Of a DNA stretch of 64,000 nucleotides, positions 13,387 through 55,399 are shown piece after piece (the stretch's first letter is position 1; each line of letters opens with the position of its first letter). The position numbers and the translations under genes are program-made. The DNA is from Candidatus Buchananbacteria bacterium (GTDB lineage: Bacteria; Patescibacteriota; Patescibacteriia; Buchananbacterales; UBA6539): contig JBAYLH010000003.1 of NCBI GenBank assembly GCA_041664165.1, positions 3,247 to 67,246 of the forward strand. Direction: 5' to 3'. The notes beneath the pieces were generated by a model. The model was not told the DNA's origin. It made no database searches and saw nothing but the letters and a program-made list of their open reading frames with translations.

Positions 13387-13839
13387 GGGGATGTTTAAAA
13401 ATCGATAGAATCCAAATTTAAAGTTCTCAGATCAAGCATTGAAAATTTGGCTTGTTAATCTCAAATTTTCACCATGATAAGTGCCAAATCACTTGTCGCT
13501 CGAGTAAAAAGTGCTTTCAGTACTTTTGCTCTAGCACCCGTAATGGCCTAAAACCCATTACCATCAGCCCGGCGATACCTAATAACCGGTCACCCGCTTC
13601 GACTCGCGTCGAACTAGGTGCGCCCGCTAAGTCCTAACCGATGAAGCGAGGCGAGCTGGTGTCATAAATTAGGCACGGCAAATTAGTGTCTCACTGACTT
13701 GCTTAAACACCCGAGACTTTGGTTTTAAAGACTTTTGTTAATTTTATACTTTAAAACCGAAACAAAAAAATTGACTACACCTGTAAACCAACTTTGAATT
13801 TCTTTCTAGACAGGGGTGCAATTCCCCTCATCTCCACCA
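13387..13839 (+). ncRNA. ssrA: tmRNA (ssrA), putative
   Basis: It sits immediately downstream of smpB in a 780-bp non-coding gap. The 5' GGGGATG pairs with the 3' CATCTCC-ACCA as a 7-bp acceptor stem that includes the alanine-identity G3:U70 wobble. The T-arm is AGGGG-tgcaatt-CCCCT. CCA is encoded. A helix-2a-like pairing links AAATTTAAAG (13416-13425) with CTTTGAATTT. The hairpin GTAATGG-cctaaaac-CCATTAC places a TAA in its loop, as expected for the tag stop codon. Confidence 0.55.
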
Positions 13840-15023: not shown

Positions 15024-15371
15024 ATGCCTAGAGTTAAAAGAGGAAAAGCTCATGTTGCCAGACGAAAAAGACTTTTAGCCAAAACTAAAGGTTACCGCTG
15101 GAGCCGAAAAAGCAGCATCAAGGCCGCGAAAACCGCCATCCGTAAAGCCGGAGTTCACGCCTATACCGATCGCAAGAAAAAAAAACGGGTCAACCGCGCT
15201 TTGTGGCAGATTCAAATTAACGCTGCCAGCCGAAGCAATGGTTTAAGCTATTCAAAATTTATTAATTTGCTAAAAGTTAATAAAATCGAATTAGACCGGA
15301 AAGTCCTGGCCGAACTGGCCGGAAAAAATCCGAAAGCTTTTGCCGTCATGGTCGGCCAAATCAAAAAATAA
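15024..15371 (+). CDS. rplT: 50S ribosomal protein L20
   Basis: 115 aa. MPRVKRGKAHVARRKRLL...YTDRKKKKRVNRALWQIQINAA...SYSKFIN matches L20 throughout. Confidence 0.9.
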   Translation: MPRVKRGKAHVARRKRLLAKTKGYRWSRKSSIKAAKTAIRKAGVHAYTDRKKKKRVNRALWQIQINAASRSNGLSYSKFINLLKVNKIELDRKVLAELAGKNPKAFAVMVGQIKK

Positions 15372-15413
15372 TTAGCAATTAAAAAAACTAAATACACAAA
15401 AAAGTTCCAAAGC

Positions 15414-15487
15414 GGAGGCGTAGCTCAGTTGGTTAGAGCGTCTGCCTGTCACGCAGAAGGTCGTGGGTTCGAGCCCCATCGTCTCCG
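15414..15487 (+). tRNA. tRNA-Asp (anticodon GTC)
   Basis: The cloverleaf folds by hand: acceptor GGAGGCG/CGTCTCC, D-arm GCTC-AGTTGGTTA-GAGC, anticodon loop CTGTCAC, T-arm GTGGG-TTCGAGC-CCCAT, discriminator G. CCA is not encoded. Confidence 0.9.
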
Positions 15488-15512
15488 CTTTGGAACTTTT
15501 TTAATTCTTATA

Positions 15513-15754
15513 AGGGCGAAGGCTCAGTTGGTTAGAGCGTCTGCCTGCGCGCCCCGCTTCAATTCAAATAACTAAACTAATCTTTAAAAAATTTGCGAGC
15601 CACAGGCGACTCCGCGCCAGCTAAAAAAATCTTTCGCCAAAAGCACATCGCGAAATTGAGGCGGGGTCACGCAGACCCGCCCGAACAACGGTGATATATT
15701 TAAGTCGTTCAGTCGGGCGGGAGGTCGAGGGTTAGAATCCCATCGTCCCCGCCA
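15513..15754 (+). tRNA. second tRNA-Asp-like copy interrupted by two insertions (intron-containing tRNA or pseudogene)
   Basis: 15522-15547 is identical to positions 10-34 of the adjacent tRNA-Asp (through CTG of the anticodon loop). TCACGCAGA (the rest of the anticodon arm) reappears at 15668-15676, after a ~120-nt insert that ends in G. The variable loop, T-arm and acceptor 3' strand, with encoded CCA, are at 15721-15754. A further ~45-nt hairpin insert (CCCGCCCGAAC...GTTCAGTCGGGCGGG) lies between them. The 5' acceptor strand does not pair well with the 3' strand, and the T-stem has an A:A mismatch. Confidence 0.4.
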
Positions 15755-15891
15755 GATGTCCAAGTTTGAACCCAAATAAAATAAGGGTTTTATACGATTG
15801 AAAAGCCGGTATCCGAACAAGATGCCGGTTTTTTAAACGCTTATCAATAGTTAAGAAAGCTGGTATAATATAAGTAATATAAAATAAACCT

Positions 15892-17691
15892 ATGGATATT
15901 AAATTCAAGGAAAAAATAATCAAGCTTTTCAGAAATGACGCTCGTTTTTGGGATACGGAAAAAGAAGAGCTTAATCAAACTTTACTAAAAGATGCAGTAG
16001 ACAAGTTTGGCGAAAAAGTTATAGAAACTCTTTTGGCTGACTCAGAAGCCAAAAAACAATTTTTTGTAAAAGTTAAAGATGCTTATATTTTTAAACCAAA
16101 TGATTTTAAGTTTTTTCTTGATGAAAACAAACTTGATAATTCATATACTCAACTAGCTAATAAAATCGGACTTGCCACGGAAGAAATTTCCAGCGAAAAG
16201 GTGGTTTTGAATTGGCCGTTTAAGGATTGCGTGCTTGAAGGTGGAATGACCAAGGAAGATGCGATGGATGTTTACTTCAAATATGACACTAAAATCGGTG
16301 AATGGAAAGAAGAAAAAGCCAAAAGAAAAGAAATATTTTTTAATGAGGTATTGGCTCGCGACGAAATAGACAGACTAGAAGAACCGAAAACTTTCTATAA
16401 ATGGAAAAGATTTACAGAAAAGAATTATCAAAAAGGTGAAGATGTTAAAGAAATAAAAAGAGATAAAGACGGAAACATAAAAGAAAATCTTGTTATTAAA
16501 GGCAATAATTTACTCGCCTTGTATTCTCTAAAAGAACAATTTGAAGGAAAAATTAAATTAATTTATATTGACCCTCCTTATAATACTGGCAGCGATAGTT
16601 TTTCTTATAATGATAATTTTAACCATTCTTCTTGGTTAACATTTATGAAGAATAGGTTGCAAGTCGCAAGAAATTTACTTGCAGACGACGGGCTTATTTT
16701 TGTTCAGATAGGACACAATGAACAGGCTTATTTGAGAGTTTTAATGGATGAAGTTTTTAGCCGGGCCAGATTTGTTAATGAAATTACTTGGAAAAAATAT
16801 AGTGGTGTAAAAAATCAAGCAAGCAAAAAGCTTACAACTCAACAAGAAACGATATTCTTATACTCAAAAACTGAGAATTATTCAATTAACATGGTTTATA
16901 ATGAGTTATCTGAAAAATATGTTAAAGATGAATATAAATATATTGATGAAAATGGAAGAAGGTATGCGAAATTAAGAGGTAGAGGATATCAGGGTGGAGG
17001 CAAAGGAACAAAAATAAAATATTTAGATGAAAATTTAGGATCCCCAATAACAACTTTATGGGACGAAGATTTTTTGCAAATCAGCACATCATCTTCAGAA
17101 AAAATTGCAGATTTTGTCGGGCAAAAACCAGAGTCCTTGTTAAAGAGAATAATAGAATTAACAACTAATCCCGGAGATGTGGTTCTAGATTATCATGCCG
17201 GCACGGGAACAACTTGTGCGGTTGCCCATAAAATAGGACGTCAATGGATTGGTGTGGAACAATTGGATTATTCAGAAAATAATCCTGAGGAAAGAATGAG
17301 AGGTGTGATTGCTGGTGATAAAAACGGAATTTCCAAAGGGGTAAATTGGAAAGGTGGCGGTGATTTTATTTATATTCAACTCGCAAAATGGAACGAGGAG
17401 GCAAAAGAGAAAATTGCTGAAGTAAAGTCATATGACGAACTAACAAAACTTTTTGCCAATTTGTATGAAAAATATTTTCTTAACTACAACGTCAAGGCAA
17501 AAGATTTTAAAGAAAATGATATAAAAAGTGAGGAATTTAAAAAAATATCTTTGTCTGAGCAAAAAAAGATGGTCGCCCGCATGCTTGATCTCAATCAGAT
17601 GTATATAAACTTTAGCGAGAGGAAAGATAAAAAGTACAACCTTTTAAAAGATGATATTGCTTTGAGTGAGGAGTTTTATGATAAGAAATAG
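15892..17691 (+). CDS. mod: type III restriction-modification DNA methyltransferase (Mod), beta-class N6A/N4C MTase
   Basis: 599 aa. Motif IV IDPPYNTG precedes motif I (VLDYHAGTGTTCAVA), the circular-permuted order typical of type III Mod. It is translationally coupled to the downstream Res gene (stop/start 2 nt apart). Confidence 0.85.
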   Translation: MDIKFKEKIIKLFRNDARFWDTEKEELNQTLLKDAVDKFGEKVIETLLADSEAKKQFFVKVKDAYIFKPNDFKFFLDENKLDNSYTQLANKIGLATEEISSEKVVLNWPFKDCVLEGGMTKEDAMDVYFKYDTKIGEWKEEKAKRKEIFFNEVLARDEIDRLEEPKTFYKWKRFTEKNYQKGEDVKEIKRDKDGNIKENLVIKGNNLLALYSLKEQFEGKIKLIYIDPPYNTGSDSFSYNDNFNHSSWLTFMKNRLQVARNLLADDGLIFVQIGHNEQAYLRVLMDEVFSRARFVNEITWKKYSGVKNQASKKLTTQQETIFLYSKTENYSINMVYNELSEKYVKDEYKYIDENGRRYAKLRGRGYQGGGKGTKIKYLDENLGSPITTLWDEDFLQISTSSSEKIADFVGQKPESLLKRIIELTTNPGDVVLDYHAGTGTTCAVAHKIGRQWIGVEQLDYSENNPEERMRGVIAGDKNGISKGVNWKGGGDFIYIQLAKWNEEAKEKIAEVKSYDELTKLFANLYEKYFLNYNVKAKDFKENDIKSEEFKKISLSEQKKMVARMLDLNQMYINFSERKDKKYNLLKDDIALSEEFYDKK

Positions 17692-17693
17692 TT

Positions 17694-20462
17694 ATGCCTG
17701 AAAAATATCTTTACGAAGAATTAAAAGAAAAGGCTTTTGATTATGGTATCTCAAAATCGCAGATACCTGATTTTATTGTTGATAATTTGAAGTATCCTTT
17801 ATTTGCTTGGCAAAAAAATGCCATAGAAAATTTTTTAACTTATGAGGAAATTAGAAAAGAAGAAGGTGGTTTGAAGCCACTGCATTTAATGTTTAATATG
17901 GCTACGGGTACTGGAAAAACATTGGTTATGGCGGCCCTGATCTTGTATTTTTATAAAAAAGGGTATAAGAATTTTATATTTTTTGTAAATCAAAACAATA
18001 TTGTTGATAAAACAGAAAATAATTTTATTAACAAAAGCCATAGCAAATATCAATTTAAACAGAATATTGTCATAGATAATAAAACAGTGCAAATAAAAAA
18101 AGTTGATACTTTTTTATCGAAATCGGAAGATATTCAAATAAAGTTTACTTCTATTCACAAACTCCATAATGCCGTATATTTAGCAAAAGAAAACTCTGTT
18201 TTTTTGGAGGAGTTGCAACGACAAGATTTAATTATGTTGGGAGATGAAGCTCATCATTTTAATGCTACTACTAAGAAGAATAAACCCGTCCAGTTAAGCT
18301 TATCCGGTGAATTGTCGGAGAGCGCAAGTCAGGAAGAAATTGAAAAGAGTTGGGAAGATACAGCTATTAATAAAATTTTAAAAAGGGGCAATAATAATAA
18401 AAATAAGCAAAATAATAACGCCCTTTTGGAGTTTACGGCGACAATACCGAGAGATCAGAGTGTAGACGATAAATATAGAGATAAAATTATTTATAAGTTT
18501 ACTCTAGAAAGCTTTCTTGACGCTGGTTATACCAAAGAAATCAATCTGGTCTCTTCAACTCTTAATAAAAAAGAACGAATTTTGTCGGTTTTATTATTGA
18601 ATTGGTATCGGCATAGTATAGCAGTAAAAAATAACCTACCGAATTTTAAGCCGGTTATTTTGTTTAGAAGTAAAACAATTGAAGATTCTAGAAAAGATTT
18701 TGATGAATTTTTGGATATTGTAAAAAAGCTTTAAAAAGACGATTTTAATTTTTTAAACTCAATAGACAAAAATTTCTTTGAGGGTGGAAATTTGTTTGAT
18801 AAAGGGAAGAGTAAAATTTTGGCAATGACCAGATTTATCAAGAATGAAAATATTAAATTCCCTGAAATCATTAACTGGATAAAATATTCATTTGCGGATA
18901 GAAATTGTTTGATAACCAACTCAAAAGATAATAAGAAAAAAAATAAAGAAGAAACCGATGAAGATCAAGATAGATTGCTTAACAGCTTGGAAGATCAAGA
19001 TAATCATATACGAGCAATTTTTACTGTTAAAAGATTGACTGAAGGGTGGGATGTTTTAAACTTATTTGACATAGTTCGTCTTTATGAAGGCCGTGATGAG
19101 TGGCATGATAAAAAAACTGGCGAAAGGAATGCTGGGGATTCCACCATCTCAGAGATTCAGTTAATTGGTAGAGGCGTGCGATATTTCCCTTTTAAATACC
19201 AAGACAAAGAAGCAAATAAGAGAAAATTTGATAATGATTTAGACAATCCGATGCGAGTATTGGAAGAATTTGACTTTCATTGTTTTGACGATAATCGTGG
19301 ACACTTTATAGATGAGCTTAAGCGTGAATTGAAACGTAAGGGGTTTATAAAAGAAACTAAGGTTAGAAAAAAGTTTGAATTAAAAACAGATTTTAAGAAT
19401 TCTGAGTTTTATAAAACAGTTAAAATTTTTTTAAACCATAAAATTGAAAATGTTAACAAACGTAAAAACAGTCTCAAAGAAATAAGGAGTGGCTTGAATT
19501 TTGAATATAGGTTAAAAACTTTCTCAATTAAAGAAGAACAAGTTAAATTAGGGAACAAAGAAGATGCGACACTTTTGGAAACCATAGGTGATGAAATGAA
19601 AACTCTGACCGTGAAATTAAATAGTTTTGAAAAAAATATCGTATATAAAGCGCTGAATATACATGCGAAAAAAGATAACTCGCTATATCGTTTCGATCAT
19701 CTTGCTTCCGAGTTTGAAGTTGAAAGTATTGATGAATTATTCAAAGAGGACATTTTAGGTGATATAAAAATAAATCTGGTCACATCTTCCAGTGTAAAAA
19801 AATTAGATAATGTTAATCAAGGCGAAAAATTAGGTATCCTACTCGCTTTTTTTGAGAAGTTAGAGGCTGAATTAAAGACAGTAAGTAATCCATATCTCGG
19901 CACAGAATTTAATGGTGTAAAATTTTCTGAAATTTTTGGAGGTACAAAAGAAAAAGCCGTAGAAATAGATGAGGAGAGCGAAAGAATAGAAAAAGAGTTA
20001 AAAGAACAAGACTGGTATGTCCTTAGTGGTTTTAATGGTACAAGCGAAGAAAGGTGTTTAATTGATTTTTTGAAAGAAAAAATTGGTAATCTAAAATCAA
20101 AATACGAAGAAGTATATTTACTCAGAAATGAAGAGATATACAAAATTTATGATTTTGAAAGAGGACGCGGTTTTCAACCGGATTTCTTACTGTTTTTAAA
20201 ACGTAGTAAACAAAGATTATATTACCAAGTTTTCATTGAGCCAAAGGGTTCGCAGTTCGCTGATAGAAGTGGTATTTTTGTAGAAAGTAAAGAGGCATGG
20301 AAAGAAGATTTTTTGAAAGAAATTACTAGGAGATATTCTGAAAAAGAAGTACTAAAAATGGAAAATAATCAGTACAAACTCATTGGCTTACCACTGTTTA
20401 ATGAGAGAATAAAAACAGATTTTGACAATGAATTTAATAGGCAGGTTTTGGAAGCTATTTAA
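17694..20462 (+). pseudogene. res: type III restriction enzyme Res subunit, interrupted by one in-frame TAA (18732-18734)
   Basis: ORFs 17694..18734 and 18792..20462 are in the same frame and are separated only by TAA at 18732-18734, which I checked codon by codon. The N-terminal half has helicase motif I (NMATGTGKT) and the DEAH box (LGDEAHH). The C-terminal half has motif VI (LIGRGVRY) and a PD..EPK nuclease motif (QPDF...FIEPKG). Combined length is ~922 codons, typical for Res. Confidence 0.75.
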
Positions 20463-20610
20463 TCGAATAATCCACCTCATTTTTGCCTTTAATTGACTTT
20501 GGCTTGGGTGTCTCAAACCATTCAGGATGAACTTTGAAGATACGCCTTAATTCCTGTATACTATTATCAATATCCTTGAATTTGAGCCACTTTTTCGGTT
20601 CAAAGTTGCG

Positions 20611-20627
20611 GGACATCGTCTCCGCCA
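20611..20627 (+). repeat. degenerate direct repeat of the tRNA-Asp 3' end (possible island att-site remnant)
   Basis: GGTTCAAAG...GGGACATCGTCTCCGCCA matches the tRNA-Asp T-loop/acceptor 3' end (CATCGTCTCCGC, 12/12). It lies just past the R-M genes and is followed by a terminator hairpin CGCCTAACCGGCG-T7. Confidence 0.4.
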
Positions 20628-20677
20628 TTCAAAATAATCGCCTAACCGGCGATTTTTTGTTTTTTTTATTTGTCTAA

Positions 20678-40618: not shown

Positions 40619-41623
40619 TTAGGGTGCGGCAGGAGCACTGGTTGCCGGAGGGGCAACCGGGGGTTTAGGAGCAGGAGCTGGCGCAGGAGCCGGCTTGTTA
40701 ATCAACCCCTTTACCAGAGTCGGGTCGATTCCGGCGACACCCATATCCGCCGCTGAATTTTCCAGGCTCTTTTTGATTGCCTGGTATAACGGCGAGTCGG
40801 GGCCAGCCTGAATGGCATGAATTGCCATCCTATCCCAGGAAATATCCTTGGGAATACCAATGGCCGGTTGTCCCTTTGGGGTGCCGTTTACCACAACCGG
40901 AACCACGGTATCGGCTTGAGTGGTAGCGATTGCCGAACCACCTGTCGCCGGCGCAGGTGCCGAAGTGGCGGAACTGATCGGATTTTCCGATTCTTCCGCC
41001 AGCTTTCCCTTCGGAGACAGAATCTCCCATGCCCAGAATATCCCTAAAACAATAACCAGGGATACCAAGAGTACTACCGCGGCTCTTACCAAGCTACCCC
41101 GAATACGTTGTTCACGATTCGGCGTAGTAGGCGTAGTGGGCGCAGGAGTCGGTTCAGGCTGGACGTCGTCAAACCATAACGGCACACTGCCTCCATCACT
41201 AAACGGGTCGACCACTGGAGGTTCTGTTCCAGGGGTTGCGGCCGACGCACGCGCAGGAGTGGGAGCCGGTTCAAAAACCGGTTCCTCAAGAAGAGCAGAC
41301 AGATCCTGATCCTCATTTACTCCGCCACCGTCGCCGAAAGACTCAAGCGGCGGCAAACCATCAGGACCATCTACGGGTTTCGGGTTGGGCGAGAATTGAT
41401 TGATCAACTCGACCAGGGCGTTTCCATCGACTTGAATGGATCCGCTTTGCAGCTGCGCCAAGGCAAGATCAAAAAACTCTTTCCGAGGTAAAACATCTTC
41501 GTACCGCAGCCACGAAAGGCCAAGGTTGCGAAGATTTTCTTCGAGATTGGCGTCATTTAGGACGCCAATTAGGCCGGCGGCATCTAAAACAGCAGTCGCC
41601 TGTCTGATTTCCTGAAGAGTCAT
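40619..41623 (-). CDS. Pro/Ala-rich single-pass membrane protein, hypothetical (GC-rich operon, gene 3)
   Basis: 334 aa. The N-terminal cytoplasmic region is Pro-rich with acidic patches. A TM helix at ~175-195 is followed by a C-terminal (PA)n tract. The gene overlaps the upstream gene by 4 nt (ATGA). Confidence 0.45.
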   Translation of the reverse strand: MTLQEIRQATAVLDAAGLIGVLNDANLEENLRNLGLSWLRYEDVLPRKEFFDLALAQLQSGSIQVDGNALVELINQFSPNPKPVDGPDGLPPLESFGDGGGVNEDQDLSALLEEPVFEPAPTPARASAATPGTEPPVVDPFSDGGSVPLWFDDVQPEPTPAPTTPTTPNREQRIRGSLVRAAVVLLVSLVIVLGIFWAWEILSPKGKLAEESENPISSATSAPAPATGGSAIATTQADTVVPVVVNGTPKGQPAIGIPKDISWDRMAIHAIQAGPDSPLYQAIKKSLENSAADMGVAGIDPTLVKGLINKPAPAPAPAPKPPVAPPATSAPAAP

Positions 41624-42612
41624 GACTCTCCTCCTTCTCTAATCCGTCGGATTTTGACTTCCAGCGGACTACCGGTTAACAACTTGAACCGCAGTACTTC
41701 TCCCAGCAGGCTACCGGTAGAAAAATGCACCCGGGCACACCACTGGTTATCGGCTAATTGAACCGGGTTGAGTGGCCCAAATAATCCGTCACCCGATCTC
41801 ACCCGCAGCCGCTTCACGTCGTTTTCCGAATTCAATGGTCCGAATTCGAAAATTTCGTCTTTACAAACGACGACGTTGGTCGGCGTCCACCCTTGGGGGT
41901 CAGATCCAGCCATTGTGGCTAAAACCATCCCTTCTTTGGGTCGCGCCGCCTTGGATAGCGACAACAACGGTTTAACTGCGACAGCCAATTCCACTTTTAC
42001 TTCCTTTTGACTAGGAATTGGGCCAAGACAGCCATGCCAGACGTAGCCCAAAATCCAGCTGGCGCCGTCTGTCTTCAATTGCTGAACCGGCACCAGAGAC
42101 TCGGCCATACCGCCGGTTTTGAAGGCCAAACGGTAACAGGCCTTGACCGGACGACTTTGGTCCAAGACCTGATCGTCCATCGGTGCCCAGCCGCCTTCTT
42201 TGACCTGCATTAGCGGCGCTGGTGAGCGGACGATTATCCGTTCAGTCCAGTCCGTAACGCTAGCAAAGCCTTCGGCTAGCCGGTTGCTTGCCGCTGCGAT
42301 TTGCTCAATATCAATGAGCTGCTTCGTCATCGCCGCGGCGTTAGGATTTATGTTGTTTGGTCCAGGCAACTGAACCTGGAAATCCTTGACATTGATTGAT
42401 GCAACTACCGGCTTTACTTTTACTCCCCAAAATATCTTGCCGGGGACAAAAGTATTGGCCAGCAGCACTGCCAGGGGTATTACTACCAGCAGCACCCACT
42501 TCCAACGAGATTGCCAGAAGAGAGCCACTGCCAAAACCGCGACAGCCACGCTTGCTATTGGATAAAACATCCAGCTAAGCGCCGCTAACACCACCACCAG
42601 AAAAATTCTCAT
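41620..42612 (-). CDS. hypothetical membrane-anchored protein (GC-rich operon, gene 2)
   Basis: 330 aa, two N-terminal TM helices, then a soluble domain. No recognisable motifs. Confidence 0.4.
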   Translation of the reverse strand: MRIFLVVVLAALSWMFYPIASVAVAVLAVALFWQSRWKWVLLVVIPLAVLLANTFVPGKIFWGVKVKPVVASINVKDFQVQLPGPNNINPNAAAMTKQLIDIEQIAAASNRLAEGFASVTDWTERIIVRSPAPLMQVKEGGWAPMDDQVLDQSRPVKACYRLAFKTGGMAESLVPVQQLKTDGASWILGYVWHGCLGPIPSQKEVKVELAVAVKPLLSLSKAARPKEGMVLATMAGSDPQGWTPTNVVVCKDEIFEFGPLNSENDVKRLRVRSGDGLFGPLNPVQLADNQWCARVHFSTGSLLGEVLRFKLLTGSPLEVKIRRIREGGES

Positions 42613-42623
42613 CTTCCATTCTC

Positions 42624-43673
42624 CTACTTGGAGGCCTTAGCGGGCCTCTCCGGTTTGCTTTCTTCGGCTTCAGGTTTTTCTTTGGCCGGCTTTTCACCCC
42701 CACCGGTGAACCCACCAAACTTCAATGTCATTTCGGGAAAAGCCAGTCCACTGTGACCACTGCCAATCACGCCTTCTAGTGCCTTCATTATCGGGAAGGC
42801 GATGTTTGCCCAATGTTTATCAGGTAATCCGGTTACAGCCCGAATTTCCTTGATTGCCCTGGCCTGATGGACAGCAGCACGAGCACCAAACTCAGCTGCC
42901 TTGACGCTGGCCATGGCCGCCAGAACTTCCTTGAGAGGATAGATATTTTCGATCCGCACTTCCACTTTAAGACCGAAGTCTTTAAAGAAGTGCGTGCCAT
43001 TTACTAAGTCGGTCGCGGCCCGAGCCATCGCTAGGAGCTTAGCCGTTGGTAAATCGACCAATTCAGTATCCTCAAATCCCGCCGTCATATAATTAAGTAA
43101 GGCGGACATGAACTGCTCAACAATCCCTCTTACATCCTCCTTAATCGTGATTGCTGCTACGACCGGATTTTCCGTTGGCCAAACCGTTACCTGGCTATCA
43201 ACGACAACCGGGTTACTTCGGGTGTTAACCTGCCTTTGCAGCAGGTTAATATTAATCGGCCGGCAATCAAACAGCTTGACCGTTTCGAACAATAACCGGG
43301 GAAACCAGATTATTCGCCAACCGGATCTTTTGGCATAAAAGCCGGTCAGCGACTTTTCGTCAGCACCCCTAGTTCTCCGAACCACCCACGCAAAATTGGG
43401 CGGTATGTCTCGAATTTCGCACAGCGCGAGGATGATAAACCTCAAATACTTCTGATCACCCTCGACTATTTCTGAGCGCTCCCACCAGGGAACCTTCAGA
43501 AACTTCTGACTTATCACCCACCAGCCCGCCATGGCTGCCGAAATAATCACCAAGGTGAAAATCAAGGCAAATAACGGCGTCAGTGAGGCAATAAAAATAA
43601 ACACCACCAAACTGAGCAGCACCATTGCTGCCACCAACAACCATTCCCATCTGTTAAAATCCATGTCGCGCAC
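42624..43673 (-). CDS. SPFH/band-7 (stomatin/prohibitin-like) domain protein (GC-rich operon, gene 1)
   Basis: 349 aa. An N-terminal TM hairpin is followed by VVRRTRG...GW.I.FP.L....K.D.R......L, which fits the SPFH core. The C-terminus is a Lys/Glu/Pro-rich tail. Confidence 0.55.
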   Translation of the reverse strand: MRDMDFNRWEWLLVAAMVLLSLVVFIFIASLTPLFALIFTLVIISAAMAGWWVISQKFLKVPWWERSEIVEGDQKYLRFIILALCEIRDIPPNFAWVVRRTRGADEKSLTGFYAKRSGWRIIWFPRLLFETVKLFDCRPININLLQRQVNTRSNPVVVDSQVTVWPTENPVVAAITIKEDVRGIVEQFMSALLNYMTAGFEDTELVDLPTAKLLAMARAATDLVNGTHFFKDFGLKVEVRIENIYPLKEVLAAMASVKAAEFGARAAVHQARAIKEIRAVTGLPDKHWANIAFPIMKALEGVIGSGHSGLAFPEMTLKFGGFTGGGEKPAKEKPEAEESKPERPAKASK

Positions 43674-44347: not shown

Positions 44348-45364
44348 TTAGGTTTTAGGTTTTAGTCTATGGATAATTAAACTTAGGCTGACAATAATTA
44401 TTCCCAAACTGACTAAAACCGGCAGCCGGACGCCAAAAATTTCCGGCGTTTGGTCAATTCGTAGAAATTCCATCGCCAGCCTGATTAAAGAATAGTTAAT
44501 TAAATAAACTAAGCTAACCAGCCCGCCAGCTTGCTGCTTTTTATAAAGCCAAAAAAACAAAACCAACAAAATCAAAAAATTGACCAAATCCAGCCCGGAT
44601 TCATACAAAAACGTCGGTTGAAAATACTGATAATTCAAATACCCGGCCGGCCGGTTGGCTAATTCAATGGGAATACCCCAGGGCAAAGCTGTCGGCTTAC
44701 CAAAAATTTCCTGGTTAAAATAATTGCCCCAGCGGCCGATCGCCTGCCCCAGCGGCAACGCCACGGCTAATAAATCCGCCCAAAGCCAAAAGCTATTTTT
44801 TTGCCCGCCGCCTACTCTTAAGCTTCCCCTCTCCCCCTTGGGGGAGAGGGTTAGGGTGAGGGGGTGAGGGGTGTTTAGCTTCAGGCATCTGAGGGTGAGG
44901 GGGTGGGTAGTGAGGGGGTGAGTATAAATAAGTAAAGTAATAATCCCGGCAATAATCGCCCCGTGAATCGCCAGCCCGCCATGCCAAACCGCGGGAATTT
45001 CCCAGGGGTTGCTAAAGTAATAAGGCCAGTCCAAAAAAATCGCATAAATCCGCGCGCCCAAAAAACTGAAAATAATCAGATAGAAAGCCAGGTTATAAAC
45101 CCCCCCACTTTCAATTAAAGGTTCCTGCAAACTTAATAATTTTTTATGCTCATCATCTTTTGTTTGTTTGGCCTGCCTGTTTTGAAAAAAAGTGGGGGGG
45201 TAAACTTCGTCGTCTTTAATTTCCCAGTATTTCGCTAATTGCAAAACCACAGCTAAACCGGCAACCACGCCGAAAACAACAAAAAGTCCATACCAATGAA
45301 TTTGGACAAATCCCAGCTGAAACAAAATCGGCTGCGGCATAAAGTTGTGCAAAAAGTTGATCAT
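44348..45364 (-). CDS. lgt: prolipoprotein diacylglyceryl transferase carrying an in-frame ~45-aa insertion encoded by a G-rich palindromic repeat
   Basis: 338 aa. The Lgt signature GRWGNYFNQEIFGKPTALPWG is present. The extra segment THPLTTHPLTLRCLKLNTPHPLTLTLSPKGERGSLRVGGG maps exactly onto repeat copy A (44826-44921). Confidence 0.8.
   Translation of the reverse strand: MINFLHNFMPQPILFQLGFVQIHWYGLFVVFGVVAGLAVVLQLAKYWEIKDDEVYPPTFFQNRQAKQTKDDEHKKLLSLQEPLIESGGVYNLAFYLIIFSFLGARIYAIFLDWPYYFSNPWEIPAVWHGGLAIHGAIIAGIITLLIYTHPLTTHPLTLRCLKLNTPHPLTLTLSPKGERGSLRVGGGQKNSFWLWADLLAVALPLGQAIGRWGNYFNQEIFGKPTALPWGIPIELANRPAGYLNYQYFQPTFLYESGLDLVNFLILLVLFFWLYKKQQAGGLVSLVYLINYSLIRLAMEFLRIDQTPEIFGVRLPVLVSLGIIIVSLSLIIHRLKPKT
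44826..44921. repeat. G-rich palindromic repeat, copy A (inside lgt)
   Basis: The copy contains the hairpin CTCTCCCCC-TT-GGGGGAGAG followed by tandem GGTTAGGGTGAGGGGGTG-like units with G3-G5 runs. Confidence 0.8.
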
Positions 45365-45392
45365 AGTTTTTCCCCTCTCCCTCTTTGCTAAT

Positions 45393-45436
45393 CTCCCCCT
45401 CTCCCCTTGGGGGAGAGGGTTGGGGTGAGGGGGTGC
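45393..45436. repeat. G-rich palindromic repeat, copy B
   Basis: CTCCCCCTCTCCCCTTGGGGGAGAGGGTTGGGGTGAGGGGGTG lies immediately upstream of the lgt start. Confidence 0.8.
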
Positions 45437-48888: not shown

Positions 48889-48911
48889 ACTTAGTAATTA
48901 GGAAGTTAGTC

Positions 48912-49010
48912 CCGCACCTATTTTACTGATTACCATTAAGCTTAAAAAATATTTTATTTAATAAAAAGTTTGATTTCAATTATAGATTGATTAATAAAAT
49001 AGGTGCGGGA
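48912..49010. promoter_or_regulatory. 19-bp perfect inverted repeat TAGTCCCGCACCTATTTTA ... TAAAATAGGTGCGGGACTA between pyk and ppsA
   Basis: The arms are at 48912-48930 and 48992-49010, separated by ~60 nt of AT-rich sequence. They share the core CACCTATTTT/AAAATAGGTG with the hairpin upstream of groES. Confidence 0.6.
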
Positions 49011-50498
49011 CTAAATCGTTTCCACTTTAACCAAATTGGTCTGGCCCAAAAAGCCAAAAGGATGGCCCGCGGCGATAACCACAATATCGCCTTTGCTAAC
49101 CAGCCGCTTGCTGATTAACAAATTCTTAATTTTAGCCATTAAGTCATTAAACGAGGAAACAAAAGGCAGATAATAGGAATTGACGCCCCAGCTTAAGCAA
49201 AGCTGATTTTTGGTTTTTTCCGAAGCCGCCAGCGCGACTACGGTGATATTGGGTCGGTATTTGGCAATTGACCGGGCGGTGAAACCGGAAGTCGTGGCGC
49301 AGACAATCAATTTGGCGCCAGTCTCGGCGGCAATTTTTTCCACCGCAAAGCTGACCGTTTCGGTAATTCCGCCGATTTTTTTTAAGCTATTTTCAATTTG
49401 CTGATGCTCTTCAATTTCGGTTTTTTCCACTTCATTGGCGATCCGCGTCATCACTTGCACCGCCTTGAGCGGGTACTTGCCGGTGGCGGTTTCCCCTGAA
49501 AGCATGATCGCGTCCGTGCCGTCTAAAATCGCGTTAGCCACGTCGGAAACTTCCGCCCGGGTTGGCACCGGATAGCGGATCATTGAATCAAGCATTTGCG
49601 TCGCAACAATGACCGGTTTGGCTTCCTGAACGCAGCGCCGGACAATTTTTTTCTGAATTAATGGCAAATCCTCCAGCGGAATTTCCAAACCCAAATCGCC
49701 GCGCGCTACCATAATGCCGTCGGCCACTTTCAAAATTTCTTCAAAATGAGCCACCGCTTCCGCCCGCTCGATTTTGGCAATGACTTTGGTCTGAGTTATC
49801 GGCACGCTCCCGCCGCGGTTGGGCTTTTTGAAATCTTTGTCTTTGCGGCCGAGCCTTGATTCAAGCCGGTGAATATTTTTTTTCAATTCGATAATATCCG
49901 ATTCATCTTTGACAAAAGACAGGGCAATAAAATCAACTCCTTGTTTTAAGCCGAACCTCAAGTCTTCCATGTCTTTTTGAGTTACCGGTTTGGCTTTAAT
50001 TTCCGACTTCGGAAAATTCATTCCTTTGTGGGCATAAATAATATCGCCAATTTTAACTTTGCAGCGAATCGCTTTATTTTTTATCGCAACTACCTCCAAT
50101 TCAATTTTGGCATCATCAATTAAAACCGGATTGCCGGGTTTTAAATCACGGTACAAACCGGGGTATTGAATCGGAATGAAAGCTGAAACATCTTTGAGGG
50201 AAATCCGAAAATTTTCCGGCACCAAATAGATAAACTCGCCGGCTTCGACTTTAATGCCTTCGGCGGCAATGTTGCCGGTGCGAATCCGCGGCCCCTGCAA
50301 ATCCTGCAAAATAGCGACCGGCTGGCCGGTTTTAGCCGCTACCTTTCTGAGATTATTAATCAGCAAGGTATGGTGTTTGTAAGTGCCATGGGAAAAATTA
50401 AGCCGGGCAACATTAAGCCCGGATTTAACCATCAGTTCGATTTTACTTTTGGTCTCCGAGGCCGGACCGATCGTGCAGACGATTTTGGTTCTTTTCAT
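49011..50498 (-). CDS. pyk: pyruvate kinase
   Basis: 495 aa. MKRTKIVCTIGPAS...NVARLNFSHG...QDLQGPRIRTG is canonical. Confidence 0.9.
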   Translation of the reverse strand: MKRTKIVCTIGPASETKSKIELMVKSGLNVARLNFSHGTYKHHTLLINNLRKVAAKTGQPVAILQDLQGPRIRTGNIAAEGIKVEAGEFIYLVPENFRISLKDVSAFIPIQYPGLYRDLKPGNPVLIDDAKIELEVVAIKNKAIRCKVKIGDIIYAHKGMNFPKSEIKAKPVTQKDMEDLRFGLKQGVDFIALSFVKDESDIIELKKNIHRLESRLGRKDKDFKKPNRGGSVPITQTKVIAKIERAEAVAHFEEILKVADGIMVARGDLGLEIPLEDLPLIQKKIVRRCVQEAKPVIVATQMLDSMIRYPVPTRAEVSDVANAILDGTDAIMLSGETATGKYPLKAVQVMTRIANEVEKTEIEEHQQIENSLKKIGGITETVSFAVEKIAAETGAKLIVCATTSGFTARSIAKYRPNITVVALAASEKTKNQLCLSWGVNSYYLPFVSSFNDLMAKIKNLLISKRLVSKGDIVVIAAGHPFGFLGQTNLVKVETI

Positions 50499-55336: not shown

Positions 55337-55399
55337 TTAACCCCCACACCTATTTTTTTATATATTCTACACCGTCTAAAAAATAGGTGTGGGGGTTAA
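55337..55399. promoter_or_regulatory. 22-bp inverted repeat TTAACCCCCACACCTATTTTTT...AAAAAATAGGTGTGGGGGTTAA in the groES leader
   Basis: A perfect stem with a ~20-nt loop, located between CIRCE and the groES start. Its core CACCTATTTT/AAAATAGGTG is shared with the pyk-ppsA inverted repeat. Confidence 0.6.

Follow-up and report, generated by a model that had tools for sequence, protein, structure and literature searches.

The tRNA-Asp locus and its restriction-modification cassette

The 64,000-nucleotide stretch of DNA analysed here (the window) is part of contig JBAYLH010000003.1 from a Candidatus Buchananbacteria bacterium and contains, downstream of rplT, an intact tRNA-Asp gene, a second, interrupted and decayed copy of this gene, and a cassette of 4,871 bp (15755-20625) with the genes Mod and Res of a type III restriction-modification (R-M) system. 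The left-hand gene order of the window is AI2E-smpB-tmRNA-infC-rpmI-rplT (tmRNA, transfer-messenger RNA), followed by tRNA-Asp; for L20, species representatives give a best match of 79%. The intact tRNA-Asp(GTC) gene (15414-15488, plus strand) was recognised by both ARAGORN and Rfam (71 bits) and is the sole tRNA found in the window. It does not encode the CCA end, and its acceptor stem is lengthened by a 23-nt inverted repeat (15398-15420 / 15480-15502). The position of tRNA-Asp after rplT is kept in the relatives L008-L018.

The decayed copy (15512-15754, plus strand), an element that is like a tRNA, starts 24 nt downstream of the intact gene; its 5' part is at 15512-15547 and its 3' part, which terminates in CCA, at 15722-15754. 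Positions 15522-15547 are a 26-nt exact repeat of the 5' part of tRNA-Asp (D-arm and 5' side of the anticodon stem), confirming the interrupted tRNA-Asp-like copy that a preliminary description of this DNA had placed at the proximal end. The interruption is caused by two inserts: a hairpin-forming insert of 118 nt in the anticodon loop (15548-15665) and a hairpin of 46 nt in the variable region (15676-15721), with GTCACGCAGA between them (15666-15675). Read directly from the sequence, the acceptor stem is mismatched and the T loop is TTAGAAT; T stem and acceptor are closer to the CCA-encoding tRNA-Asp of the relative L012 than to the intact tRNA of the window. No Rfam family matches the decayed copy.

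The cassette differs from its surroundings in base composition: its GC content is 0.311, compared to 0.43 for the rest of the window, and in a scan of 1-kb windows the region from about 16000 to 20500 has values of 0.29-0.33, the lowest sustained stretch, with roughly 0.34-0.55 elsewhere. The GC content at third codon positions (GC3) is 0.26-0.27 for Mod and Res versus 0.36-0.46 for the neighbouring genes. These values support the earlier impression, gained by eye, that the two genes are markedly more AT-rich than their surroundings. The cargo starts with a leader (15792-15891, plus strand) that has a terminator-like hairpin at ~15803-15836 and, as its best promoter-like site, TTATCA-17-TATAAT with a TG (15841-15869); this leader is conserved in five other R-M cassettes (L092, L102, L111, L112 and L162, see below).

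Mod (15892-17691, plus strand) is an intact type III DNA methyltransferase of 599 amino acids with both the N6/N4 methyltransferase domain (PF01555, 3.7e-54) and the type III-specific N-terminal domain (PF12564, 8.8e-13); no phase-variable repeats were found in Mod. Res (17694-20462, plus strand) is co-oriented and only 2 nt apart; its N-terminal part (17694-18734) is a ResIII helicase (PF04851) and its C-terminal part has HI_1054 domains according to the precomputed annotation. Both proteins thus resemble those of EcoP15I-like type III systems, with the difference that Res of the window is split: an in-frame TAA at 18732-18734, missed in the preliminary description, breaks it into two ORFs (open reading frames) of 346 and 556 amino acids in the same frame (17694-18734 and 18792-20462), so that the single polypeptide of helicase and endonuclease expected for Res is not intact. 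In four relatives, Res is a single ORF of 920-922 amino acids, and the closest of these, L102, has AAA (Lys) at the position of the stop codon. The stop codon is shared by three independent assemblies of the same population (JGI, ENA and Logan), indicating a genuine nonsense mutation rather than a sequencing error. Since Res is split, restriction has probably been lost from the system in this genome, and the element is probably decaying or has DNA methylation as its only remaining activity. This is the usual route of R-M decay: the nuclease goes first and the methyltransferase stays.

Two end modules delimit the cassette

Outside the cargo, the cassette consists of two end modules that are common to all members of the family described below: a left module of ~36 nt (15755-15791, plus strand) and a right module of ~170 nt (20453-20625, minus strand) that carries a small conserved ORF, orf57 (20455-20628, minus strand). 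In the left module, the left inverted repeat GATGTCCAAGTTTGAACC (15755-15772) is accompanied by a small AACCC..GGGTT hairpin with a run of T after it. The right module holds the right inverted repeat GGTTCAAAGTTGCGGGACATC (20597-20617) and a tRNA-Asp-like core, CATCGTCTCCGC (20614-20625). When sequences were shuffled, the observed score of the terminal inverted repeats was reached in 0-1 of 2000 shuffles for three cassettes and in 12 of 2000 for a fourth.

The core is identical to the last 12 nt of tRNA-Asp and occurs as an exact sequence in the window only at 15477 and 20614 (by hand arithmetic, ~0.008 exact 12-mers are expected by chance in 128 kb, both strands counted); the degenerate tRNA-Asp 3' end at the distal side, proposed before from inspection, is therefore real. 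A copy with one mismatch is present at 15741, within the decayed tRNA-Asp copy, where it is followed by CCA; the copy at 20614 is followed by CA. This results in a direct repeat, CATCGTCCCCGCCA (15741-15754) and CATCGTCTCCGCCA (20614-20627), that is identical at 13 of 14 positions: CATCGTC(C/T)CCGCCA is the longest match between element and target seen among the cassettes. The proximal junction (attL side) is between 15754 and 15755, at the CCA of the decayed copy rather than at the intact tRNA-Asp. The host side of the distal junction (20626-20659, plus strand) consists of CA and a bidirectional intrinsic terminator (20636-20654).

A family of cassettes with fixed ends and variable cargo

Sister Mod-Res cassettes are present in unrelated genomic contexts, with amino acid identities of 62-81% for Mod and 71-92% for Res. 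Two of them (L102 and L111) lie directly after the CCA of an intact tRNA-Ser(GCT) gene, and the others (L092/L090 and L112) directly after the CCA of tRNA-like elements. The contexts of eight orf57 homologues revealed cassettes with other cargo. Three of these have tRNA-Ser(GCT) as target: L158 encodes a methyltransferase, a protein of 838 amino acids and an SLFN/AlbA-ATPase, L161 encodes a HEPN/AbiV protein, a LexA-like protein and a C5 methyltransferase, and L162 encodes a type IIG R-M system. At tRNA-Ser(CGA), there is a type I R-M system in L165 and two methyltransferases plus ORFs without assigned function in L166; at tRNA-Ser(GGA), L160 has a DUF2779 protein, a helicase-nuclease of 1631 amino acids and a helix-turn-helix (HTH) protein. 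L164 has the same type I R-M cassette as L165, there adjoining another cassette. For L170 (a methyltransferase and a LexA-like protein) the right end was mapped, and a tRNA-Ser(GCT) is at the expected place of the left end.

The end modules have 81-95% nucleotide identity between cassettes of wholly different cargo that have nothing else in common. Cassette lengths across the family range from 3.5 to 7.1 kb, the orientation relative to the tRNA is constant and every insertion is placed exactly after the CCA. No integrase or transposase domain was found in 12 of 12 mapped cassettes or in their immediate neighbours, and no recombinase domain among 20 ORFs of the window with 242-464 amino acids.

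The junctions are precise and recurrent. In the window and in the Mod-Res sister cassettes, the left junction consists of ...C(C/T)GCCA, directly followed by GAT(G/T)(T/A)CCAAGTT(T/A/C)GAACC. The right end, where the contig reaches it, is ...TTGAATTTGAGCCAnTTTTTnGGTTCAAACTT(CC)GGACATCG(T/C)CnCCGC, and then unrelated DNA starts: BLAST homology stops at window position 20625 for L102, L111, L112 and L160, and at 20627-20633 for the other sister cassettes, where the flank likewise starts with CA. Every cassette has the conserved sequence G(T/C)CnCCGC beyond its right repeat, independent of the left flank, and the targets always end with (T/C)C(T/C)CCGCCA or a close variant; thus, an element shares no more with its target than the 3' strand of the acceptor. 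Since the distal tRNA-Asp-like stretch (20590-20625) is retained even beside tRNA-Ser, it is a conserved part of the cassette. The view that the island is bounded by tRNA-Asp fragments therefore holds for the presence of the sequences, but the distal one is the cassette's own right end and not simply a displaced fragment of the host gene. In this clade, the acceptor strand of tRNA-Asp has exactly the sequence of the cassette core, which suggests that the end module arose at a tRNA-Asp site.

Cassettes can also be found next to each other. In L164, a block of genes of the cyclic oligonucleotide-based antiphage signalling system (CBASS), encoding CD-NTase, Cap15, DUF2188 and a LexA-like protein, lies beside the type I cassette and reaches to the end of the 20-kb locus, while L165 has tRNA-Ser(CGA) there (L164 16573-20198 compared to L165 16573-16662), indicating that cassettes stack and differ between related strains. 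The end of the CBASS block beside the type I cassette has a different tRNA-like sequence (...GGGGGTACCTAACCCGAGTGTCCCGCCA), a hint at further cassette families.

Related loci without the cassette

The preliminary description had suggested looking for related tRNA-Asp loci that lack the R-M genes, and such loci exist: relatives that share the synteny from AI2E through rplT and tRNA-Asp lack Mod, Res and orf57 in the 10 kb that follow, and the rplT-tRNA-Asp locus of L008-L018 is without the cassette. In L012, an intact tRNA-Asp gene with encoded CCA is directly joined to TTCAAAATAATCGCCTAA..GGCGATTTTTT, the sequence that is found 3' of the cassette in the window; the flank after the cassette has 93% identity to L012 10522-10565 over 44 nt. 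Judged by this alignment, L012 shows how the uninterrupted (empty) site looks, with the native 3' flank of a tRNA-Asp-CCA gene.

Several Logan contigs (L003, L006, L007 and L089), from two samples, end at the position corresponding to 20576 of the window, and one of them ends inside the tRNA. An empty allele was considered as the reason for this break and rejected, as a different contig from the same sample contains the cassette; the break falls into the multi-copy orf57 module and probably reflects a repeat in the assembly graph.

Proposed origin and movement of the cassette

These data make it probable that 15755-20625 is a horizontally acquired, non-autonomous integrative cassette that was inserted site-specifically by a recombinase acting in trans. 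Of the earlier proposal of an island that is site-specifically integrated at a tRNA gene, the foreign composition, the mobility, the location at a tRNA-type 3' end and the (13/14) repeat stand; the target needs correction, as it is the CCA of the decayed copy. We read this decayed copy as an older tRNA-Asp gene that was disabled by insertions and once owned the terminator at 20636-20654. The original locus would have consisted of rplT, tRNA-Asp, the older tRNA-Asp copy ending with CCA and the terminator, and the older copy would already have been disabled by its two hairpin insertions before the cassette arrived. The cassette would then have entered between the CCA of the decayed copy and its terminator, presumably by a site-specific crossover within (T/C)CCGC(CA), the sequence common to the target and the right-end core of the cassette; the crossover would have occurred in or beside CCGC, catalysed by an enzyme encoded elsewhere. 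Upon entry, the cassette would have delivered the terminator-like left module, its own promoter, the type III Mod-Res genes and the right module with orf57, for which a role in the process is conceivable.

In a hypothetical circular form with joined ends, inverted arms of ~18-21 nt would flank a GTCnCCGCCA core, the arrangement of a recombinase core site. The expected junction of the excised circle would be ...GGTTCAAAGTTGCGGGACATCGTC[T/C]CCGCCAGATGTCCAAGTTTGAACC... and the expected junction of the empty site would be ...GGTTAGAATCCCATCGTC[C/T]CCGCCATTCAAAATAATCGCCTAACC... Because neither the cassette nor its 11 mapped relatives encode a recognisable recombinase, movement would have to depend on an enzyme supplied in trans, and for the same reason the family appears to be non-autonomous by design.

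Some observations weigh against this model. No recombinase was identified for cassette movement in the 12 mapped members or among the 20 window ORFs, and several cargo ORFs have no Pfam match and could be an unrecognised recombinase. Neither an excised circle nor an empty allele of the same species was found, the cassette being present in three of three assemblies of the population. For cassettes other than that of the window, the flanking direct repeats are short and not perfect (5-8 of 10), and the crossover position can therefore only be inferred. Most orf57 members have no clear start codon.

Other explanations have to be compared with this model. Replacement of the cargo by RecA-dependent homologous recombination, with the end modules (left, tRNA plus 36 nt; right, ~170 nt) serving as homology arms, would agree with the 81-95% identity of the modules around unrelated cargo, with the highly variable cargo at equivalent tRNA-Ser sites and with the fact that no recombinase gene was found. 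We regard it as unlikely, as it fails for the first insertions at tRNA-Ser(GCT), tRNA-Ser(CGA), tRNA-Ser(GGA) and the tRNA-like elements, where the right flanks are unrelated and the boundaries nevertheless identical and precise; homologous cargo exchange may operate alongside site-specific insertion. The significant terminal inverted repeats, the many family copies with conserved ends and the lack of a mobility gene inside the cassette could also be reconciled with a non-autonomous DNA transposon, similar to a miniature inverted-repeat transposable element (MITE) with cargo, that uses a transposase from elsewhere with a preference for tRNA 3' ends. The junctions make this improbable: there is no target-site duplication that has a constant length and differs from site to site, and the G(T/C)CnCCGC after the right repeat is constant whatever the left flank and so belongs to the element. 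DDE-type transposition is unlikely because no site-dependent target duplication exists, and the fixed orientation and the exact insertion point after the CCA are more typical of site-specific recombination.

The preliminary description had favoured a classical integrase-bearing island at tRNA-Asp whose integrase was later deleted. The position at a tRNA, the direct repeat of the tRNA 3' end and the low GC content are what such an island would leave behind, but the junction is at the decayed copy and not at the intact tRNA, and the loss of an integrase does not agree with the family: 12 of 12 mapped members have no recognisable recombinase and have the same compact ends abutting the cargo, so that the same deletion would have been needed repeatedly. 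We consider this scenario very improbable. Carriage by phages was also considered and rejected, as neither end module occurs in IMG/VR: the left module and orf57 were not found in its viral contigs.

Relationship to known mobile elements

In its behaviour, the cassette resembles the genomic islands of the Islander/TIGER type, which target tRNA or tmRNA genes and have tyrosine integrases, but it lacks an integrase gene, the feature that defines them. Common features are the insertion at a tRNA-type 3' end, the proximal sequence that is complete through CCA (a decayed copy in the window, an intact tRNA-Ser in sister cassettes), the distal tRNA-like fragment, the foreign composition and the defence cargo; the location at a tRNA 3' end, a direct repeat at the far end and an empty locus in relatives, all typical of tRNA islands, were found here. 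In contrast to these islands, an own integrase is absent in 12 of 12 cassettes (the cassette of the window encodes Mod, Res and orf57 only), the distal fragment resembles tRNA-Asp also where the target is a tRNA-Ser, inverted repeats form the ends and the elements are very compact (3.5-7.1 kb).

CIMEs are cis-mobilizable elements of streptococci, and IMEX elements exploit the host XerCD. The cassettes share with both the att-type bounds, the absence of own recombination genes, the presumed mobilisation from elsewhere and the tandem accretion at one site (L164 versus L165); they differ in their target, which is a tRNA 3' end and not dif or the att site of an integrative and conjugative element (ICE), and in having orf57 in an end module. 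Like integron cassettes, they are small units without a recombinase, with variable and often defence-related cargo and arrays at one site, and joining of the ends in the predicted circular form would, by analogy, restore a palindromic recombination site. Unlike integron cassettes, they have their own promoters, a size of 3.5-7 kb and a tRNA gene as platform, and no intI/attI. The organisation is closest to such recombinase-less, att-bounded elements (CIMEs, IMEX and integron cassettes), from which the cassettes differ by their target, by their ends and by having the orf57 module.

By itself, an AT-rich R-M island next to a tRNA gene is routine; the interest lies in the cassette family. Bacteria of the candidate phyla radiation (CPR) have tiny genomes with few recognisable mobile elements, and their exchange of defence genes is poorly understood. 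Literature searches aimed at such cassettes in Patescibacteria gave no description of them, and a family of integrase-less cassettes that carries different defence systems to the ends of Patescibacteria tRNA genes is apparently undescribed. We tentatively suggest that the cassettes may constitute a new class of CPR elements: recombinase-less, with two end modules and inverted ends, inserted after the CCA of tRNA-Ser genes or tRNA-like pseudogenes, stacking, exchanging interchangeable defence cargo between distant lineages, dependent on trans-acting recombination and thus a tRNA-anchored analogue of integron cassettes. If this is true, compact cassettes with fixed ends that target tRNA ends without a recombinase of their own would be a concrete vehicle for the exchange of defence genes in CPR bacteria, and the two end modules would be a simple sequence signature to locate defence cargo in CPR metagenomes. 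It would also point to a recombination activity acting at tRNA 3' ends.

orf57

The orf57 of the right end module has 74 homologue clusters with 55-90% identity, from sources that name Patescibacteria, Parcubacteria, Daviesbacteria and Doudnabacteria. Variable columns are concentrated at the third codon position (9, 5 and 21 for the three positions), arguing for translation. AlphaFold predicts a single helix (mean pLDDT, the predicted local distance difference test, of 70). There is no match to orf57 in PDB, Pfam, NCBIfam or PHROG; one of 45 members (P0188) has a sub-threshold C-terminal match to MUG113/T5orf172 (GIY-YIG-like).

The conserved part of orf57 starts exactly at the cassette boundary (G-G/D-D-V), and the predicted N-termini (P0122-P0194) have between 0 and ~45 residues that are derived from the flanks. 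In the window (20614-20628, minus strand), a 1-nt insertion brings an ATG in frame. The idea that the circular form restores a start codon or promoter of orf57 was dropped: the joined sequence, read by hand for L111 only, has an in-frame TAA just upstream.

tRNA-like elements and hairpin insertions

Similar incomplete tRNA copies that contain GC-rich hairpins as inserts are found around the tRNA-Asp or tRNA-Ser genes of many related loci (L010, L011, L014, L015, L027, L046, L067, L111, L112, L161 and L164). Arrays of partial tRNA-Asp copies are present in L010 (10570-10930), L011 (5866-6110 and 6535-6640), L014 (10650-11020), L015 (1808-1975) and L027 (7740-8070); they have inserts in the D, anticodon, variable or T loops, and in several Patescibacteria the genuine tRNA-Asp is flanked by them. 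In L011, 5' tRNA fragments are upstream of the gene and 3' fragments downstream. The same hairpin of ~46 nt (CCCGCCCGAAC...GTTCAGTCGGGCGGG) that is inserted in the variable region of the decayed copy of the window (15676-15721) is found in a D arm in L011 (6037-6086).

A recurrent insert is a double-hairpin module consisting of T(C/G)CGCC-loop-GGCG(G/C)A and CC(A/C)GCC-TCT-GGC(T/G)GG, present in L010 (10616-10678), L014 (10948-11005), L112 (5236-5283), L164 (9979-10026), L011 (6004-6034), L049 (6304-6351) and L018 (575-612). Compensatory changes are seen in it when genomes are compared; found both in the T and D loops of tRNA copies and on its own in intergenic DNA, it looks like a small dispersed insertion element. 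That the tRNA-like elements are one conserved structured RNA was considered, as the hairpins have compensatory changes among genomes, and rejected, given the differing tRNA positions of the hairpin modules, their standalone intergenic copies and the absence of an Rfam match. We treat the tRNA-like elements as decayed tRNA copies with small hairpin insertions; cassettes clearly use them as insertion sites, with examples in the window, L092 and L112.

Group I introns have been described in tRNA-Asp and tRNA-Asn of Patescibacteria, at position 35/36 (PMC13011429). The interrupted copy of the window is similar in phylum, in tRNA and in the location of its insert in the anticodon loop; it differs in that the insert is of 118 nt and located after position 33 or 34. 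A group I intron, or a tRNA with several introns, was rejected: there is no match to RF00028 at E<=10 within 15300-15900 and the insert is too small. Other arguments against it are that the variable region holds another insert, that acceptor stem and T loop have degenerated and that an intact tRNA-Asp is adjacent.

Further features of tRNA-Asp loci and of the window

The tRNA-Asp genes without encoded CCA of the window and of five relatives (L010, L011, L014, L016 and L017) lie within an inverted repeat of 12-15 nt that lengthens the acceptor stem; the pairing of these repeats is kept across genomes although the sequence varies. Relatives that encode the CCA of tRNA-Asp have a terminator in place of the inverted repeat.

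The tmRNA gene of the window (13387-13839, plus strand) was found by Rfam (98 bits) and missed by ARAGORN; it has 453 nt, compared to the 374 positions of the model. A GC-rich region on the minus strand (40619-43673; GC content 0.50-0.55, with a window mean of 0.43) contains three consecutive ORFs of 330-349 amino acids, one with a Band 7/SPFH domain and two without a Pfam match. Two long intergenic palindromes (48908-49012 and 55340-55396) have common arms, CACCTATT...AATAGGTG, and hairpins of the sequence CCCTCTCCCC-TTGG-GGGGAGAGGG are repeated at 44827-44850 and 45373-45419. The palindromes and the TTGG hairpins may be other small repeat families.

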